Shown here in pieces: positions 23,038 through 30,021 of a stretch of DNA of 64,000 nucleotides. The stretch lies in contig OZ244653.1 in NCBI GenBank assembly GCA_965218795.1, positions 352,001 to 416,000 of the forward strand, given 5' to 3'. The position numbers were made by a program, and so were the translations under genes. The stretch comes from a bacterium. GTDB lineage: Bacteria > UBA8248 > JACPRG01 > G963555815. The number at the start of each line of letters is the position of its first letter. Position 1 is the first letter of the stretch. The notes below the pieces were generated by a model. It was given only the letters and a program-made list of their open reading frames with translations, was not told the DNA's origin and searched no databases.

Positions 23038-23331
23038 CGCGATCTAGGGCAATCGAGTTCGGTCTATGCCTGGACAGGCGGGAACAATCTCAATGACAGG
23101 CTATCGGAGGTTCGATCGGGAGGCAACTGACCTTTTATCTTGTTTCCGAGTCAGACTGGAAGGGGTAGGCTGTCTGAGGAAGAAAGGGGGTCGGCATGAG
23201 CAGGAAGAAATCGAAAACAATCGTCTCTGCCCGGCGTGTGTCGAGGTTCTGGCGGCGGCAGAGACGTCGCCGTCCTCGTTTCCTGAAAACGGACGGACCC
23301 GGGGCCCTGCCATCGGCGGCCTCGGAATCTG

Positions 23332-24138
23332 TCACCAGGCCAGCCAGCCTCCGTCCACTGGGAGGATGTGCCCGGTGACCAGTCCGGATGCCGCAGAGAC
23401 GAGAAAGATCGCCGCCCCCTTGAGCTCATCAGGCATTCCGATCCGCTGCATGGGCATCCGCTCGTTGACGTGCTCTCGAAAGGCGTCGCCCCAAAGAGGA
23501 GATTCCTCGCCCCCCAGGTCGGTCTTGAAGACGCCCGGGGCGATTGCGTTGACGCGAATCCCATCCTTCGCCCATTCCACCGCGAGCTGGCGGGTCAGAT
23601 TGGCGACGGCTCCCTTGGAGGCGGCATAGGCCGCCACGGGAAAGCTGGGGCCTGCCGCCAGTCCCCAAATCGAGCTGATGTTGACGATGCTGCCGCCTCC
23701 TCGCGCCTTCAGGTGGGGATAGACCGCTTGGCTGCACCAGAAAACACCGTCCAGGTTGATGGACATGAGGGTTCGCCAGTGATCGACCGGCATGTCCTGG
23801 GCGGGGTAGGGGCCGTTGTGTGTCCGGCTTCCAACGCCCGCATTGTTGATGAGGATGTCGATCCCCCCCAGCGAGTCGGCGATCTCGTTCATCGTGGAGA
23901 ACACGTCATCCCGATCCGAGACGTCCACGAGATGGAGGTGGGCGGCGTATCCTTCATCTTGAAGTGTCTGGACGCTCGTCCGGCCTTCTTCCTCCAGGCG
24001 GTCGGCCAGGACGACCTCCGCGCCCGCTTCAGCCAGCCCCGTGGCCATTCCCAGGCCCAGCCCCCTGGCGCCGCCCGTGACGATTGCGACCTTGCCCTTC
24101 AAACTGAAGATTTCAGGAAACGAATGCGGTGAGGACAT
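23332..24138 (-). CDS. SDR family oxidoreductase
   Basis: TGGARGLG, NNAG, YAASK (YxxxK), RVNAIAPG, VDGG. Confidence 0.93.
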   Translation of the reverse strand: MSSPHSFPEIFSLKGKVAIVTGGARGLGLGMATGLAEAGAEVVLADRLEEEGRTSVQTLQDEGYAAHLHLVDVSDRDDVFSTMNEIADSLGGIDILINNAGVGSRTHNGPYPAQDMPVDHWRTLMSINLDGVFWCSQAVYPHLKARGGGSIVNISSIWGLAAGPSFPVAAYAASKGAVANLTRQLAVEWAKDGIRVNAIAPGVFKTDLGGEESPLWGDAFREHVNERMPMQRIGMPDELKGAAIFLVSAASGLVTGHILPVDGGWLAW

Positions 24139-24433
24139 GGATGTTCATCCTTCCAGCCGTGGCTTGATGAATCGAGCGAGCTCGATTCGGGTGAATTGGG
24201 TCCACAATGTCTCTTTCCTCGAAGTATAGCGCATCGGACATCAGGACGGGCGCTTCATGTCTTTCTACGAATTCGCCATTCCCGATATGGCGCGGGGATG
24301 CCTGGTGCCGGTTGCGGGACACTGCGTTCGGTCAAGCGGATTTTCCACTTGGTCCATGAATGCGCCGGTCGATTGGACAATCAATTCTGCTACGCGTTAC
24401 ACTGCGTCATCACGTCACAGAGGAGGACATTGG

Positions 24434-25102
24434 ATGGTCATGGACAGTGCCGATTTCGCCAAGAAGATGATCAAGCGGGCGGAAGAATTCGCGGCGATCA
24501 TGCAGGACAACGTGTATCAGGACCGGACCCCTTTGTCCGAGGAGCGCACGATCGGCTTGCTGAAATCCCAAATGTACCGAGAGTATTATCTTGGCGTCCT
24601 CCCTCCCTCCAAACAACTGATCATGATCCCTGACTCGGAGGTGGAGTTGAAGGTTCTGATCACCCGTCAGTTGTGCGAGGAGTTTCTCCATTACCGGGTG
24701 CTCTCCGAACGGCTGGAGGAGATGGGAGCCAACGGGAGTTTGAGCGCGTATGACCCCCTCCCGCAGGACTTGGGCATGTACCGCCTCACCTTCGAGTATC
24801 AGACGCCCTGGGAAATTGCGGCCTCCCTCCAGGTCTTCGGCGAGACCATCCTGATCACGAGCCAGAAGTGGATGATCGATGTCGTCGATGAGCGGAGCGC
24901 AAAAATCATGCGGGACGAGATCCTGGTTCATGAGGGGACGCACGTCCGGAACGGGAGGCTGGTCCTGGAGAGGTACGCGACGACGGAAGACATCCAGCGG
25001 CGCGTGGAGGAGATTGGCGATATCAAATATCAGCAGATCTGCAAATCGTACGGTCTGTCCATGCTCAAGTCGTTCGACATGGCGGCCGGCCAGGGGGCCT
25101 GA
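24434..25102 (+). CDS. Ferritin-like diiron four-helix-bundle protein
   Basis: Ligand pattern E(YRE)...EFLH...E(FGE)...EGTH; AGGAGG RBS at 24421-24426, 7 nt before ATG. Confidence 0.75.
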   Translation: MVMDSADFAKKMIKRAEEFAAIMQDNVYQDRTPLSEERTIGLLKSQMYREYYLGVLPPSKQLIMIPDSEVELKVLITRQLCEEFLHYRVLSERLEEMGANGSLSAYDPLPQDLGMYRLTFEYQTPWEIAASLQVFGETILITSQKWMIDVVDERSAKIMRDEILVHEGTHVRNGRLVLERYATTEDIQRRVEEIGDIKYQQICKSYGLSMLKSFDMAAGQGA

Positions 25103-25117
25103 TAGCCATCCCGGAGG

Positions 25118-25783
25118 ATGAAGGTCATCGATGGAGGAGGCCGATTCATGTACAAAGCCCCGGACGATCTGGAAGATTACCTGAGAAAACTCTTTCGGGG
25201 GGTGCTGACAAACGCGCAGCGGCTGTCCAGGGACGCCGTGTCCCTGTTTGAGCAGGGGGGCTACCCGTCGGCTCAGTTCCTCGCGCTCAGCGCTATGGAA
25301 GAGATGGCGAAGCTCCAGGTGCTCCGGCAGCCTTTCATCTACGTCCGTTCGGAAGAAGATATGGAGAAAGCCCTCGGCGACCTGGCGTCCAGGCTCGCCG
25401 AGCATCGGGAGAAGACGACCACCTGGTTTCAGGCGGCTCCTTATATGGACGTCGAAGACCCCAAGGAGTGGGCTCACGTGGTGGATATGGTCTCCCGCAT
25501 GGTCCGAACCTGGGGCCGCGACGAGTTGATTCATAAGCGGCTGTCCAGCCTCAGCGTGGATTCAGACGTATCCGCCAGGGAGGTTTCCAGTCCGCCCGCT
25601 GCCGTGACGAGAGTCGATGCGTACTACTTCATTTGCGCCGCGCAGGAGATGATCGTCGATTACGGGGACAAAGCGGTGGACCCCTTCCCCCTTGAGGGCG
25701 CAGACCCGTTTGAGAGCTTTGAGCTATGGAAGTCGGCGGACGAGGCATTGAAGGACTTCATGCGCAGGCATGCTGTCCGCTGA
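25118..25783 (+). CDS. AbiV-family (HEPN) protein
   Basis: NAQRLSRDAVSLFEQGGYPSAQFLALSAMEEMAK, then H..K (EHREK), R..SLSVD and SSP, matching the recalled AbiV-family pattern; GGAGG RBS. Confidence 0.72.
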   Translation: MKVIDGGGRFMYKAPDDLEDYLRKLFRGVLTNAQRLSRDAVSLFEQGGYPSAQFLALSAMEEMAKLQVLRQPFIYVRSEEDMEKALGDLASRLAEHREKTTTWFQAAPYMDVEDPKEWAHVVDMVSRMVRTWGRDELIHKRLSSLSVDSDVSAREVSSPPAAVTRVDAYYFICAAQEMIVDYGDKAVDPFPLEGADPFESFELWKSADEALKDFMRRHAVR

Positions 25784-25958
25784 GCGAAGGCGGCCCGTCT
25801 GCGTTTCGTGCCGTCCCGATCGACAATCCATGACCCTTCCAGCCGGCCGGGTGCTCCGGCTTGGCCTTCCAACGACCGTCCGCTCTTGAACCGGCAGGTG
25901 AGAGCTTCCATTTCTTCTCGCACTTGGCGGCTCAGATGACCGGCAAGGATTTCTCTCG

Positions 25959-27521
25959 ATGAGCCCCATGCGGCCGATGATCGTTTGCAGGCGTGGCGCG
26001 GTGTCCGCGGGCGACCCACAGGCGGCTGCCGCCGGGTTGCGCGTCCTCATGGAGGGGGGCAACGCAGTGGACGCGGCCGTGGCCGCGGCTGCCGTGTTGA
26101 CGGTTGTCCATCCCCAAGCGTGCGGGATCGGCGGGGACGGCTTCATGCTCATCGGCGGGGAAGGGGGGGTGACCGGGATCAACGCCTGCGGACCCGCTCC
26201 TATGGCCACCGAGAAATCGTTGTATGCGGAAGAAATCCCTGAACACGGACCGCGATGCTCCACGGTCCCGGGTGTCGTGGACGGTTGGGCGAGGGCCCTT
26301 GCGGACTATGGAACCATGTCCCTCGCCGATGTTCTTGCGCCCGCAATCGACTTTGCCGAGGCGGGATTCCCCGTCCACCCGCGTTTCACTGAGTGGCTCA
26401 ATCGGAGCGGCGGGACTCTGATGGAGGGAGGCGCGCATGATTCTCCTTTCATGCCCGGGGGCGGGATTCCGAAACTGGGCACATTAGTCCGTCAACCGGA
26501 ACTGGGAGATTGCCTTCGCGCCATCTCAGAGGGAGGACGGGACGCCTATTACAAAGGGGAGGTGGCCCGACGGCTTGTCTCCGGGATTTGCGAAGCGGGT
26601 GGATATTTCTCCGAGGAGGATCTCGCATCCTACGCCTGCCGGGTCGTAGAGCCCCTAAGCGTCCCGTATCGGGACGTGACGCTCTGCCAGGTACCGCCCA
26701 ACTCCTGGGGCCTTCTGATGCTCATGCAGCTCCGCGTCCTCAACGGACTGGACGTGCCCGCTATGGGCCACAACTCGGCCCAACTGCTCCACTGGCTGAT
26801 CGAGACCCAGAGGGTCTGTTTCGCCTCGGGCCGGCCGCACATCGCCGACCCCGACTTTTCGGATATCCCTGTGGATCGATTGTTGTCAGAAGAACACGCC
26901 AAGGAACTTCGCGATTCGATTGATCCGCAAAGTGCGGGCGGAACGGCCCCGGGCGAGCCCAAGGGGGGAACGTCCTACGTCACGGCCATGGACGACCGGG
27001 GTCATGCCGTCTCACACATATTGAGCGTGTTTCATCCGTTCGGGTCGGGTTTTATCCCAAAGGGAACCGGAATTCTGATGAACAACCGTCTCTCCGGGTT
27101 CACGCTGGAGGCGGGACATCCCAACGAACTGGCCCCGGGCAAGCGGCCTGCTCACACGCTGAGCCCGGCGATGGCGGTGAAAGACGGAAGGCCCTTCCTC
27201 TCCTTTGGGACTCCCGGGGCGGCCGCACAAACCGTCACCCTGACTCAGCTTGTCATCAATATGGTGGATTTCGGGATGGACGTTCAGACGGCCATCGAGG
27301 CGCCCCGGTGGGCAGTCGACCGGGCGGGAAACCGGTTGGTCGAAGACAGGATGGACCCTTCCGTCCGGAATGAGCTGGAAGCCATGGGCCATGATTTCAT
27401 TCCCTCGGACAGCAGCCCCTTGATGTTCGGATCGGCCAAGATTGTGATGCGTGATCCCGAGACGGGGACGCTTTTCGCCGGCGCGGACTTCCGACGGTAC
27501 GGTTACGCGGTGGGGTATTAG
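25959..27521 (+). CDS. Gamma-glutamyltransferase family Ntn-hydrolase (YwrD/HpxW-like)
   Basis: GGNAVDAAVA, GIGGDGF, TVPG, GTSYVT (nucleophile Thr), PGKRPAHTLSP, GTPG, AIEAPRW. Confidence 0.9.
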   Translation: MSPMRPMIVCRRGAVSAGDPQAAAAGLRVLMEGGNAVDAAVAAAAVLTVVHPQACGIGGDGFMLIGGEGGVTGINACGPAPMATEKSLYAEEIPEHGPRCSTVPGVVDGWARALADYGTMSLADVLAPAIDFAEAGFPVHPRFTEWLNRSGGTLMEGGAHDSPFMPGGGIPKLGTLVRQPELGDCLRAISEGGRDAYYKGEVARRLVSGICEAGGYFSEEDLASYACRVVEPLSVPYRDVTLCQVPPNSWGLLMLMQLRVLNGLDVPAMGHNSAQLLHWLIETQRVCFASGRPHIADPDFSDIPVDRLLSEEHAKELRDSIDPQSAGGTAPGEPKGGTSYVTAMDDRGHAVSHILSVFHPFGSGFIPKGTGILMNNRLSGFTLEAGHPNELAPGKRPAHTLSPAMAVKDGRPFLSFGTPGAAAQTVTLTQLVINMVDFGMDVQTAIEAPRWAVDRAGNRLVEDRMDPSVRNELEAMGHDFIPSDSSPLMFGSAKIVMRDPETGTLFAGADFRRYGYAVGY

Positions 27522-27557
27522 GGCAGATACGGGGGCAGATACGGGAGGATCAGCTTC

Positions 27558-28721
27558 TTGTCCGCTTCATTGGACCCGGCGCGTCTTCTTGAAACGCTCA
27601 AGCGGCTCATCGCGTACCCCAGCCCCCAGCCTGACATCGAGAAGGTACGGGCTTTTATCCAGGAGTCGGTTCGTCCCGAGCTTCCCGTAGATGGCTTCGA
27701 TAGCGTGTTCCAGGATGCAGGCGGGAGCGTCGGCTGGTGGATGCAGGGCAGGTCCGGTGACGATCCGCCGCTCGTCCTCTGCGCCTATGCGGGGAACTTC
27801 CCGGCTGAATCCATGCCCGACCCTTATGGGCCGAAGGAAGTCGTCGGAGACTCCTATGGTCAGGACGGCCCGTGTATGTGGGGCAGGGGGACATGTGAGC
27901 AGATTGGGGCGCTGGCTTCGGCTATCGAAGCGGTCAGGACTTTTGTCGCCGGCCGGCCGGATTCCATGAGGCGGTCCCTTCTGTTCCTGGTCAACACGGC
28001 CGGAGAGACCGGGAGCCACGAGGCCGTATCGAGCTTTTTCGACGAGGCCGCCTTCGCCGGGATTGGCCCCGGCGACGCCGTCATCCTCATGGGGACGAAC
28101 AACGAAGTCTGCCTTGGGAACAAAGGGCGGGTTGATGTGCCCATCGAGATCACCGGCAAGGTCTGCCACAGCAGCACGCCCGATCTGGGAGTGAACGCCC
28201 TTGAGGCCTTGGCCGTCTGCATCGATCGATTGAAGGACGTGAAGCTGCCCCCGGCCGACCCGGACCTCGGCCCTGTCACGCTTGTGGCCACGGGCGCGGA
28301 GACATTTCCCAAGGCGAGCCACACGATTCCGGAGCGGGCGCTCGGAATGCTGGACCGCAGGCTGTTGCCCGGTGAAGAGCCGGAGCCCGCCGTCGAGGCG
28401 ATTCGGGAGGCCCTGGGCGGCCACTCTCCGGCCGGGCTCGATGTGCGGTTCGGGAAGTTCCAGTACGCCAACAAGGTTTCCGCGAGCGCGTCGCTTCCAT
28501 CGGCGGCGGATGCGGCGGTTCATTTCAGGCGGGGCGCTTCTCATCCTTACTACATGAATGCGGCCCTGGATGCCGGGTATTTCTACGTCCGAGGGCATCA
28601 GGCCCTCTGCCTCGGTCCGGGCGACATGGCCCTTGCACATACAGACGCCGAGATGGTGAGGATTCGGGACGTAATCGACGGCGCGGGGATCTATCTGGAT
28701 ATCCTGAAAGGGTTGCTTTAA
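27558..28721 (+). CDS. M20/ArgE-DapE-like hydrolase with divergent metal ligands
   Basis: WGRGT, GNKGR, GKVCHSSTPDLGVNA, LDRRLLPGE, GPGDMALAHTDAE; TTG start after GGAGG. Confidence 0.8.
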   Translation: MSASLDPARLLETLKRLIAYPSPQPDIEKVRAFIQESVRPELPVDGFDSVFQDAGGSVGWWMQGRSGDDPPLVLCAYAGNFPAESMPDPYGPKEVVGDSYGQDGPCMWGRGTCEQIGALASAIEAVRTFVAGRPDSMRRSLLFLVNTAGETGSHEAVSSFFDEAAFAGIGPGDAVILMGTNNEVCLGNKGRVDVPIEITGKVCHSSTPDLGVNALEALAVCIDRLKDVKLPPADPDLGPVTLVATGAETFPKASHTIPERALGMLDRRLLPGEEPEPAVEAIREALGGHSPAGLDVRFGKFQYANKVSASASLPSAADAAVHFRRGASHPYYMNAALDAGYFYVRGHQALCLGPGDMALAHTDAEMVRIRDVIDGAGIYLDILKGLL

Positions 28722-28770
28722 GGGGTGCAATCCGGCGGATAGGGTGGTTCAGGGTGGCTTTTTCCAATCG

Positions 28771-30021
28771 TTATTTCCTGACTCCCGATAAATTGAGCAG
28801 CGCGTGTAGCATGACGTTGGTTCCGGTCTCGATGTCCTTCCAACGGGAGAGCTCGTCCGGGCAGTGGCTCCGGCCGTTGACGCTGGGGATGAAGAAAAGT
28901 CCCGATGGCGCAAAGCCGGCCAGAACCTGTGCGTCATGACCCGCGCCGCTGTGCATGTCCCGCCACTTGGCGCCGACGGTGTCGGATCCCTTTTGCAACG
29001 CGCCGCGGACTTTTGACGACATCTTGACCGATTTCGCGGCCAGGGTCTGTTCCATCGTCATCTTGAGGCCGTGCTTCCCGGCGAGATCACGCAGATTCTC
29101 CCGGATGGCCTTGCGCATCCGCACCAGAACCGGCATGGAAAGGTCCCGCAGGTCCACTGTGAAGCGGGCGTGCCCGGGAACGATGTTGGACGCTCCAGGG
29201 CCTAACTCGATGTAGCCGACGGTGGCGACAGTGATGGGGGACCCGTGTTTCTCGACGAGTTTACGGAGCCCGGCGGCGAACTCTGCGGCGCCAAGGTAGG
29301 CATCGTGGCGCAGCCGGAAGGGCGTTGTTCCCGCATGGTCCGGCCGGCCCCGGAGGGTAACCTCGAACTTCCAAAGCCCGACGATCCCCGTGACGACTCC
29401 AATCTCATAACCGGTATCTTCCAAGACCAGTCCCTGTTCGACGTGAAGCTCGACGTAGGCGCGATAATCTTTCCGATGGGCGGCGGTCCTCAGGGATGCG
29501 GCGGGGGGAAAGCCGGCCTTCTTCATGGCCTCCGTGAGCTGGGCCCCTTTCGGATCGCGAGAGGCGTCGAGTTCGTCCTTCGTCAACACCCCGGTCATCG
29601 CCTTGCTGCCGAAAAATCCCCCAAACCTGCCTTCCTCATCGGTGAAGGCGACGACTTCAATGGGATGGCGGATGGCGATATCGGCCTCCTGAATCGTCCG
29701 GACGGCCTCGAGGACTGACAGGACGCCCAGAGATCCGTCAAACCGGCCTCCGTTGGGAACCGAGTCGATGTGCGAGCCGGCCAGGACGGCTGGTGCCGAT
29801 CGGTTCGAGACAACCAATCGGCCGAATATGTTCCCCGCCCCGTCGACCCGCGTTTTCAGGCCGGCGGCCTTCAGCCTGCTCAACAACCACTTTCTCGCCC
29901 GGAGCTCGTTCGGAGAGAAGGCCGGCCGGTGGACGCCGCCCTCAGCCGTCCGGCCGATTCGGGCCAGGTCTTCCAGATCCTTCCTGATCCGTTTGGCGTT
30001 GATGCGGAGGTTTGCCGTCAT
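28771..30021 (-). CDS. Allantoate amidohydrolase/N-carbamoyl-L-amino acid hydrolase family (M20)
   Basis: GSHIDSVPNGGRFDG, DEEGRF, ELHVEQG, HAGTTP, SGAGHDA, SHCPDE. Confidence 0.92.
   Translation of the reverse strand: MTANLRINAKRIRKDLEDLARIGRTAEGGVHRPAFSPNELRARKWLLSRLKAAGLKTRVDGAGNIFGRLVVSNRSAPAVLAGSHIDSVPNGGRFDGSLGVLSVLEAVRTIQEADIAIRHPIEVVAFTDEEGRFGGFFGSKAMTGVLTKDELDASRDPKGAQLTEAMKKAGFPPAASLRTAAHRKDYRAYVELHVEQGLVLEDTGYEIGVVTGIVGLWKFEVTLRGRPDHAGTTPFRLRHDAYLGAAEFAAGLRKLVEKHGSPITVATVGYIELGPGASNIVPGHARFTVDLRDLSMPVLVRMRKAIRENLRDLAGKHGLKMTMEQTLAAKSVKMSSKVRGALQKGSDTVGAKWRDMHSGAGHDAQVLAGFAPSGLFFIPSVNGRSHCPDELSRWKDIETGTNVMLHALLNLSGVRK

Follow-up and report, generated by a model that had tools for sequence, protein, structure and literature searches.

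Does an AbiV-family gene that lies directly behind a diiron-protein gene form a defence system with it, or is it a resident chromosomal gene that only shares its operon? This question was raised by a locus within a 64-kb stretch of bacterial DNA (contig OZ244653.1, positions 352,001 to 416,000; hereafter the window, meaning the whole stretch at its full length) that belongs to a genome of 5.17 Mb (G000). Two co-directional open reading frames (ORFs) are present at this locus, as a preliminary description of the sequence had reported. Gene 1 (24434..25102, + strand) encodes a soluble diiron protein of 222 residues with a ferritin-like/heme-oxygenase-like helical bundle, and gene 2 (25148..25783, + strand) an AbiV-family HEPN-fold protein of 211 residues that belongs to a narrow acidic subfamily and has a degenerate active site. 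The lead inference of the preliminary description, a two-gene defence or toxin-antitoxin system with a metal/redox-sensing partner, found no support: the diiron protein has paralogs without an AbiV neighbour, the two genes are unlinked in two of the seven genomes of the family, and their adjacency in four related genomes occurs only within a syntenic block. The alternative offered there, a domesticated HEPN protein, fits better, with a single copy in each of the seven genomes, purifying selection like that on the neighbouring genes and the loss of residues that are invariant in AbiV. We hold with moderate confidence that gene 2 is a fixed, degenerate and repurposed AbiV-like HEPN gene, co-transcribed with a catabolic diiron oxidase but not dedicated to it, whose product functions independently of gene 1.

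Family membership, fold and active site of the AbiV-like protein

Gene 2 encodes a genuine AbiV-family HEPN-fold protein. In HMMER searches it matched PF18728 (HEPN_AbiV) with an E-value of 5.3e-18 and 66.1 bits (cut-off 27.1) and TIGR04498 (AbiV_defense) with an E-value of 1.1e-20 and 74.4 bits (cut-off 27). Both scores are well above the cut-offs and confirmed the AbiV/HEPN assignment made earlier; the PADLOC AbiV model matched with an E-value of 1.4e-8. The motifs that had been named are all found in the protein (N22-A-x-R-L, FLALSAMEEMAK, H86-x-x-K89 and R131-LSSL-S136-V-D138), and the accompanying remark that a Ser stands for the usual Tyr in the last of them was correct. The AlphaFold model, obtained with a 32-sequence alignment, had a predicted local distance difference test (pLDDT) value of 88.3. 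Its top 22 Foldseek matches at E ≤ 1e-3 were all chains of the lactococcal AbiV structures 9bj5, 9bj6 and 9bj7 (best E 5.1e-5, TM 0.5-0.7), followed by the minimal HEPN domains 1ufb, 2hsb and 1wol with weak E-values of 0.2-0.9. At the sequence level, the gene 2 profile reached the solved lactococcal AbiV in the PDB only at E 0.02-0.03, and single-sequence phmmer searches of the PDB with the gene 1 and gene 2 proteins gave nothing at E ≤ 10.

The E-E-x-x-K helix of AbiV is present in gene 2 (E51, E52 and K55), with E51 and E52 invariant in the 32-sequence alignment. According to passages of Zhu et al. (2024, bioRxiv), E67 and K70 of lactococcal AbiV are the most conserved dimer-interface residues across the AbiV family. 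The gene 2 subfamily is acidic, with an isoelectric point (pI) of 4.6-6.2 in 13 of 13 sequences; net charge was rejected as a discriminator, since 31 of 53 other AbiVs also lie below pI 7.

In the relevant parts of Anantharaman et al. (2013), AbiV proteins are described as typically lacking the His of the HEPN Rx4-6H motif while keeping its Arg, and as carrying a second, strongly conserved "alternative" His upstream, located in the insert that separates helix 2 from helix 3. The active site predicted there consists of that Arg and the alternative upstream His. Passages of Zhu et al. (2024, bioRxiv) assign the catalysis of lactococcal AbiV to R91 and H97, and report that AbiV cleaves rRNA and that the upstream abiV2 RNA inhibits it.

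For 21 distinct sequences of the subfamily and 25 other AbiVs, the residues were compared position by position, in the numbering of the window's protein. The Arg at the Rx4-6H position (R131) was kept by all members of both sets (21/21 and 25/25). The upstream His (H86) was present in all 25 other AbiVs and in 9 of the 21 subfamily sequences, the remainder having G, L, F or R; K89, again present in 25/25 of the other AbiVs, was found in 10 of the 21. The Asn after the Arg (N132) and the Tyr five residues on from the Arg (Y136), which occurred in 19/25 and 25/25 of the other AbiVs, respectively, were absent from every subfamily member (0/21 each). These residues are part of a motif, R-N-x3-Y-x-D, that we defined from the alignment made here and not from a paper. 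The window's protein itself keeps H86, K89 and R131 and reads R-L-S-S-L-S-V-D, without the Asn and Tyr of the motif. Its "RDELIH" string (R124-H129) resembles Rx4H, but the His varies even among orthologs. The positions of lactococcal R91 and H97 align, via lactococcal-type members, to A84 and T90 of gene 2, in a flexible insert where the R is found in 13 of the 25 other AbiVs. Such residue erosion, combined with the strong purifying selection described below, points to a conserved function that is independent of the usual polar residues of the AbiV family.

Distribution, synteny and selection

A HMMER search against 1.84 billion representatives returned 83 AbiV family matches at E ≤ 1e-3. Four of them had E ≤ 1e-30, the fifth (P0043, a partial match) had 2.8e-29, and the next full-length members followed from 6e-17. 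The gene 2 subfamily formed a clade in the AbiV tree, supported at 100/99 and with a stem of 1.21, and was confined to one bacterial family (f1) in one-genome-per-species collections. PF18728 was found in seven of seven genomes of this family (6/6 when G000 is set aside), with a single intact copy in each; one genome (G006) holds a broken second match besides its intact copy. The distribution of the domain in the neighbouring family was patchy (4 of 42 genomes).

Gene 2 lies in a block made up of a short-chain dehydrogenase (SDR) gene on the − strand and the diiron, AbiV-like, gamma-glutamyltranspeptidase (GGT) and M20 genes on the + strand. This block was syntenic in four further genomes (G001, G003, G004 and G006), which together with G000 makes five genomes from three genera. 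The ratios of nonsynonymous to synonymous substitution rates (dN/dS) against the four orthologs were 0.04-0.16 for the AbiV-like gene, 0.03-0.08 for the diiron gene, 0.05-0.14 for GGT, 0.11-0.17 for M20 and 0.05-0.18 for the SDR, at saturated dS. Within the gene 2 subfamily, frames of 210-217 residues were intact in 9 of 9 genome- or contig-derived copies translated, and an alignment of 13 sequences contained 28 invariant columns.

A Pfam scan of 28 neighbouring ORFs (window 7.3-42.6 kb) found no integrase, transposase or defence gene. These ORFs had metabolic or housekeeping matches or no Pfam match, and included XDH, a beta-eliminating lyase, a luciferase-like monooxygenase, phosphoenolpyruvate carboxylase (PEPC), OCD, glycogen synthase, PlsY and sigma-70. 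The earlier remark on a catabolic setting without mobile-element markers was thus upheld. At the distant AbiV loci, three of the ten examined lay beside RES/Phd-ParE/IS110 genes, Schlafen-type helicases, or an integrase and a relaxase. The gene 2 subfamily behaves as a resident chromosomal gene that is vertically inherited, and not as a mobile defence gene.

The linkage to the diiron gene was followed in the same genomes. Two genomes of family f1, G002 and G005, have their AbiV-like gene (41-42% identity) behind a DctP-DctQ-DctM TRAP operon, where it is convergent with RtcA. The sole diiron homolog of each of these genomes lies on another contig, and the G002 copy is a monocistronic gene flanked by a CHASE2 sensor and DoxX. 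No diiron-AbiV fusion was found among the 83 AbiV family matches, and a diiron neighbour was present at none of the ten distant AbiV loci examined. In the diiron tree, the AbiV-linked diiron proteins formed a clade of their own (96/98).

The two genomes with the unlinked genes belong to a small-genome genus. There, the 3' end of the AbiV-like gene faces the 3' end of RtcA, an RNA 3'-terminal phosphate cyclase, at a distance of ~30 nt (L030:6001-7981 in G005 and L031:6001-7834 in G002). RtcA is a suggestive neighbour for an HEPN RNase-type protein, and there is none such at the G000 locus. A link to RNA repair was not supported, as the RTC match in G000 is no more than marginal and lies at a distance of 3.1 Mb.

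The diiron protein, its paralogs and the layout of the locus

Gene 1 is predicted to encode a soluble diiron oxidase/oxygenase-type enzyme. The complete E/ExxH/E/ExxH ligand set that the preliminary description had read in it is real: E83-x-x-H86, E137 and E167-x-x-H170 did not vary in any of the 27 relatives and paralogs aligned, and E49 was present in 23 of 27, the other four being distant paralogs whose alignment is uncertain at that position. In the structural model (pLDDT 92) the ligands are located on helices 36-52, 70-96, 125-150 and 153-181. Comparison with solved structures gave VIA Z values of 18.5 for TenA (2rd3), 18.4 for CADD (8va9), 17.8 for HrmI, 17.3 for the ADO-like 5ux2, 16.7 for UndA, 15.9 for R2lox and 15.7 for MMOH, that is 15-18.5 overall over 176-215 residues, by a moderate margin, since helical bundles reach Z ~13-14 from their arrangement alone. 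The identity to any solved chain was 7-17% and the Foldseek E-values were weak (1.6e-3 and up), as were the matches of the gene 1 profile in the PDB.

No Pfam or NCBIfam model matched gene 1 at its cut-off. DUF455 (PF04305) reached 19.3 bits against a cut-off of 34.3, and the other Pfam match, to DUF6471, was negligible (E 0.17). The distant paralogs had MiaE_2, DUF455 and PaaA_PaaC matches, all of them sub-threshold, and a protein language-model look-up for gene 1 led to PqqC-like, R2-like, DUF455 and ferritin clusters. The earlier designation as a ferritin-like diiron protein was right in substance, and no curated family includes gene 1.

A tblastn search of G000 revealed eight more full-length paralogs of gene 1 at 35-60% identity and three at 27-31%, plus fragments. 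A Pfam scan of 81 ORFs around ten of the paralog loci showed NMT1/THI5-like binding proteins at six loci, Amidohydro_1/2/3 at seven and Rieske ferredoxins at two, together with SDR, CN-hydrolase, XDH-type molybdoenzymes, M24 creatinase, a cyclase and MFS transporters. Most of the copies sit in catabolic clusters, which point to the breakdown of nitrogen-rich compounds. The codon-usage gene caller mis-called some ORFs (for instance at PEPC), and these neighbour lists are therefore approximate. AbiV was found beside a full-length paralog at none of ten loci in G000, and a search for AbiV remnants beside the paralogs (hmmsearch --max on six-frame translations of 15 loci) gave a best E-value of 1. 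The expanded family, with at least ten paralogs, looks like an uncharacterised oxidase family that serves many substrate-specific clusters. It is of separate interest, as a group of uncharacterised oxidases beside NMT1-like binding proteins, amidohydrolases and Rieske proteins.

The closest paralog (L012:4568-8621, G000:C1:2399568-2403621) is 60% identical to gene 1, carries a TGA stop and a frameshift, and adjoins a type I HsdR gene split into two ORFs. The 1.1 kb on its 3' side contain no convincing ORF and no HEPN match. With nothing HEPN-like 3' of this HsdR-adjacent paralog, the idea of a modular defence system composed of a diiron protein and a variable effector was dropped.

Several of the paralog loci (L012-L021) had features of their own. 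Examples of the paralogs are L013:10443-11267 (− strand), L014:4750-5406 (+), L017:4480-5145 (−) and L018:4524-5177 (+). At L021:3700-5792 (G000:C1:4756700-4758792), two distant paralogs in tandem (228 residues each, with a weak match to PaaA_PaaC) precede two small ORFs, 89 and 110 residues long, which recalls a multicomponent diiron monooxygenase cluster. The paralog at L015:5091-8817 (G000:C1:1157091-1160817) is near a DUF4411 and Peptidase_M78 (IrrE-like) pair in a toxin-antitoxin-like arrangement; downstream is a 271-residue ORF with a low coding score and no Pfam match, and a 47-residue fragment of another paralog lies at 1161371-1161511. A PIN/MazE-type toxin-antitoxin pair and IS1595/IS4-5-type transposase fragments (L013:2394-4687, G000:C1:2459394-2461687) lie ~6 kb from a 47%-identical paralog, with a short diiron-gene fragment among them.

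Gene 1 starts at the ATG at 24434 and ends with the TGA at 25100-25102. Its putative ribosome-binding site (RBS), GAGGAGGA (24420..24427, + strand), was read from the sequence and has its GGAGG core at 24422-24426, 7 nt before the ATG; homologs in the family alignment likewise start with MVMDS or MAMDS. Gene 2 ends with the TGA at 25781-25783. Its start had been placed at 25118, which left a gap of 15 bp to gene 1. The ortholog N-termini corrected this value: 10 of 10 database sequences, of 210-219 residues, start with M-Y-[K/E/Q]-x-P and the same start is found in all five syntenic loci, so that the ATG at 25148 was taken as the start of gene 2. The spacer between the two genes (25103..25147, + strand) is therefore 45 nt long, compared with ~28-58 nt in the orthologous syntenic loci, and contains the RBS of gene 2, GGAGGAGG, at 25133-25140.

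A terminator scan found no terminator-like site between the two genes. Given the 45-nt spacer, the RBS of its own and this absence of a terminator, gene 2 is probably the second cistron of a transcript that also covers gene 1. A promoter-like site (24374..24403, + strand) lies in the 295-bp divergent spacer between the SDR gene and gene 1; it is a weak consensus match only (9 of 12 positions), and the region contained two such sites, compared with an expectation of 1.1 from shuffled sequences. The 45-nt spacer had no Rfam match at E ≤ 1, and the lone Rfam match in 23900-26100 (E 0.5) was a chance hit inside gene 1. The fold at the gene junction was no better than that of shuffles (z-score 0.07). 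A structured RNA at the junction accordingly found no support. As for an upstream small RNA locus like abiV2, only the 45-nt spacer precedes gene 2, and an RNA within the gene 1 coding sequence is conceivable.

Sequencing runs were also compared with the locus; the parts not covered by their contigs carry no meaning. One RNA-seq run (X20, a metatranscriptome labelled "sponge metagenome") yielded a contig of 154 nt that matches 24811-24964, within gene 1, without a difference. Another run (X19), whose RNA nature is only guessed, had a 260-nt contig over 25097-25356, covering the junction plus the first part of gene 2. Neither contig reaches 31 nt to both sides of the junction, and carried-over DNA may be their source. 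A DNA run also labelled "sponge metagenome" contained a ~90-95% identical version of nearly the whole of 23200-28800. The presence of the ~90-95% identical locus in sponge-metagenome runs is a weak hint at the habitat.

On the far side of the divergent spacer, the SDR gene (23332..24138, − strand; adh_short_C2, E 3.9e-62) is syntenic in L022-L025, with 73-85% identity. The GGT gene (25959..27521, + strand; G_glu_transpept, E 8e-133) begins 175 nt 3' of gene 2 and is followed by an M20-family peptidase/amidohydrolase gene (27558..28721, + strand) with M20_dimer and Peptidase_M20 matches; both are syntenic in L022-L025. A second M20-family amidohydrolase gene (28771..30021, − strand; Peptidase_M20, E 5.7e-24) is convergent with the cluster and syntenic in L022 and L024.

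Rival readings and comparison with known systems

If gene 2 is a repurposed resident gene, a transcript from the spacer between the SDR gene and gene 1 would carry gene 1 and gene 2. The context suggests that gene 1 would oxidise a small nitrogen-containing substrate, in a pathway with the SDR, GGT and the two M20 amidohydrolases. The gene 2 protein would form an HEPN dimer via its E51-E52-x-x-K55 helix, and this dimer is most likely kept because the interface helix and R131 are retained. Having lost the Asn and Tyr of R-N-x3-Y, and with the alternative His often absent from its subfamily, the protein would no longer act as a suicide RNase of the classical AbiV kind. Instead, it may have an RNA- or nucleotide-binding activity, or a weak RNase activity, that serves housekeeping or a stress response without the need for gene 1. 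The two genes would then be coupled by their operon, and neither by a toxin-antitoxin nor by a sensor-effector partnership.

Several points weigh against this reading. The "core gene" pattern amounts to few independent observations because all seven genomes are kin from one family. As H86, K89 and R131 are still present in the window's own gene 2 protein, this protein may have RNase activity even where related proteins have none. The Discussion of Zhu et al. (2024, bioRxiv) states that neither R91 nor H97 is strictly conserved among AbiV members. According to sections of the same preprint and of a 2026 review, lactococcal AbiV is itself chromosomal, is constitutively expressed and needs only the upstream RNA. 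Moreover, a metagenomic contig of 1,544 bp (L037) carries, in the same order, a diiron gene 38% identical to gene 1, a 55-nt spacer and an AbiV-like gene 37% identical to gene 2 (PF18728, 36 bits), so that the diiron-AbiV adjacency survived very deep divergence or arose twice; the L037 copy grouped in the AbiV tree with the diiron-linked rows at 88/90, which is not strong. Finally, on one contig of a metagenome-assembled genome (L036:3123-6241), the diiron gene has three frameshifts, the AbiV-like gene one near the C-terminus and the GGT gene an in-frame stop at codon 191, a pattern that would fit the joint loss of a functional unit.

The retained residues, together with the clear family membership by profiles and fold, leave some room for gene 2 being a canonical AbiV defence or toxin gene. 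It would then encode an active HEPN RNase that acts in abortive infection and is restrained by an antitoxin not yet recognised, such as an RNA like that of the type III-like abiV2/abiV1 system of lactococci, gene 1 being irrelevant. The patchy, defence-like occurrence of AbiV in the neighbouring family and the RNA-dependent, chromosomal lactococcal system would agree with this. We consider it rather unlikely, in view of a position fixed in five genomes of three genera at saturated dS, with dN/dS like that of the metabolic neighbours, of the lack of mobile or defence neighbours among the 28 ORFs scanned, and of the loss of the Tyr and Asn in 21/21 and of the His in 12/21 subfamily sequences. 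In addition, the 45-nt spacer, without an Rfam match or a fold better than that of shuffles, leaves no room for an abiV2-like element of 180-296 nt outside the gene 1 coding sequence. The acidity of the subfamily, set against the Lys-rich lactococcal protein, is a weak argument, for the reason given above. The erosion of the active site across the subfamily and the disruption of the gene in one metagenome-assembled genome could also mark gene 2 as a functionless, decaying relic kept by chance; with intact frames in 9/9 copies, dN/dS of 0.04-0.16 at saturated dS and 28 invariant columns in 13 sequences, this is barely credible.

In another explanation the two genes would be a functional pair, with the diiron protein as antitoxin, sensor or regulator of a metal- or redox-gated AbiV-like HEPN protein, or with the HEPN protein as an accessory subunit of the diiron enzyme. 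In favour are the fixed gene order, a short spacer (28-58 nt across the five syntenic loci, 55 nt in L037), the RBS that gene 2 has of its own, and the grouping of the linked members in both trees, the AbiV rows at 88/90 and the diiron proteins, with good support, at 96/98. Gene-neighbourhood co-occurrence, put forward earlier as a check on the pair, was seen in the five syntenic loci only as part of the block and in L037 on a contig of only 1,544 bp; it was absent from G002 and G005, where selection maintains the AbiV subfamily although no diiron gene is linked to it. More than ten diiron paralogs are without AbiV, all with their metal ligands, as enzymes have, and neither the 83 family matches (no fusion) nor the ten distant AbiV loci (no diiron neighbour) connect the two proteins. 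The adjacency kept in the ~38%-identical L037 pair is offset in part by the diiron tree, where the L037 protein, albeit with a long branch, was placed outside the clade that unites the window's protein with two paralog groups lacking AbiV. In L036, where both genes of the pair are disrupted, the SDR and M20 genes are intact; the disruptions are either operon decay or assembly error, and the decay looks as if it concerned the operon rather than just the pair, because the GGT gene was hit too. Prediction of a complex between gene 1 and gene 2 gave 0.00, 0.37 and 0.00 in three runs (mark 0.32) and was used neither for nor against binding. We regard a functional pair as unlikely. A more specific version, an undescribed two-protein module in which a metal- or oxygen-dependent partner gates, neutralises or is assisted by a degenerate HEPN dimer, and which would be old (the window clade, and L037/P0041 at ~38%) and co-lost on decay (L036), appears improbable. 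On balance, the diiron-AbiV adjacency is old and stable, and its necessity is another matter.

So far AbiV has been described as an RNase of phage defence and, from 2024 on, also as the toxin in a toxin-antitoxin pair resembling type III. What is new here is an AbiV branch that is single copy throughout one bacterial family, locked in metabolic operons, under enzyme-like purifying selection and without residues that all other sampled AbiVs keep. If the repurposing of gene 2 is true, it would clearly exemplify how a defence-type HEPN protein is put to another use, and immunity genes in such lineages would be overcalled by defence-finder hits and by the annotation "AbiV family abortive infection protein".

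The system can be compared with known ones on the side of either gene. TenA and PqqC share the fold of heme-oxygenase-like diiron oxidases and are themselves not known to be diiron enzymes. The gene 1 model aligns over nearly its full length with these oxidases and other small ferritin-like oxidases (CADD, UndA, BesC, HrmI and FlcD; cyanobacterial ADO-like proteins; the TenA/PqqC fold), and shares with the diiron oxidases six carboxylate/His ligands on four helices. The ligand spacing of gene 1 is the classical ferritin-type ExxH...E...ExxH, unlike that of the heme-oxygenase-like diiron oxidases. The literature searched contained no paper that links AbiV with ferritin-like proteins or HEPN with diiron proteins.

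HEPN-MNT is a two-gene toxin-antitoxin module in which an HEPN gene is combined with a nucleotidyltransferase gene. Like this and other two-gene HEPN toxin-antitoxin modules, the locus consists of two small co-directional genes with a short spacer, the HEPN gene being the second. Unlike in HEPN-MNT, the upstream gene here is of a diiron enzyme type with many stand-alone paralogs, with no nucleotidyltransferase or known antitoxin fold, the pair is not mobile and the HEPN Rx4-6H motif is not intact.

The structural matches to gene 2 that come next after AbiV are the AF0298-type HEPN-T protein (2hsb) and the minimal HEPN proteins (1ufb and 1wol), by weak Foldseek scores and with no match in PDB sequence searches at E up to 10. 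They are grouped with AbiV in the corresponding part of Anantharaman et al. (2013), as proteins without the motif His that use an alternative upstream His.

The best structural match remains lactococcal AbiV (abiV1 HEPN RNase and abiV2 RNA; 9bj5, 9bj6 and 9bj7), which belongs to the same Pfam/NCBIfam family as gene 2. The two proteins have in common the E-E-x-x-K helix and the invariant Arg (aligned to R136 of the lactococcal chain). Both genes are chromosomal, and in both a functionally relevant element would be expected directly upstream; for gene 2 this position is taken by the gene of a 222-residue enzyme, whereas lactococcal AbiV is preceded by a small non-coding RNA locus. Gene 2 differs further in its very low sequence similarity, in having A84 and T90 at the places of R91 and H97, in the loss of the Tyr after the Arg and in being acidic where the lactococcal protein is Lys-rich. 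Unlike lactococcal AbiV, it is vertically fixed in a metabolic cluster.

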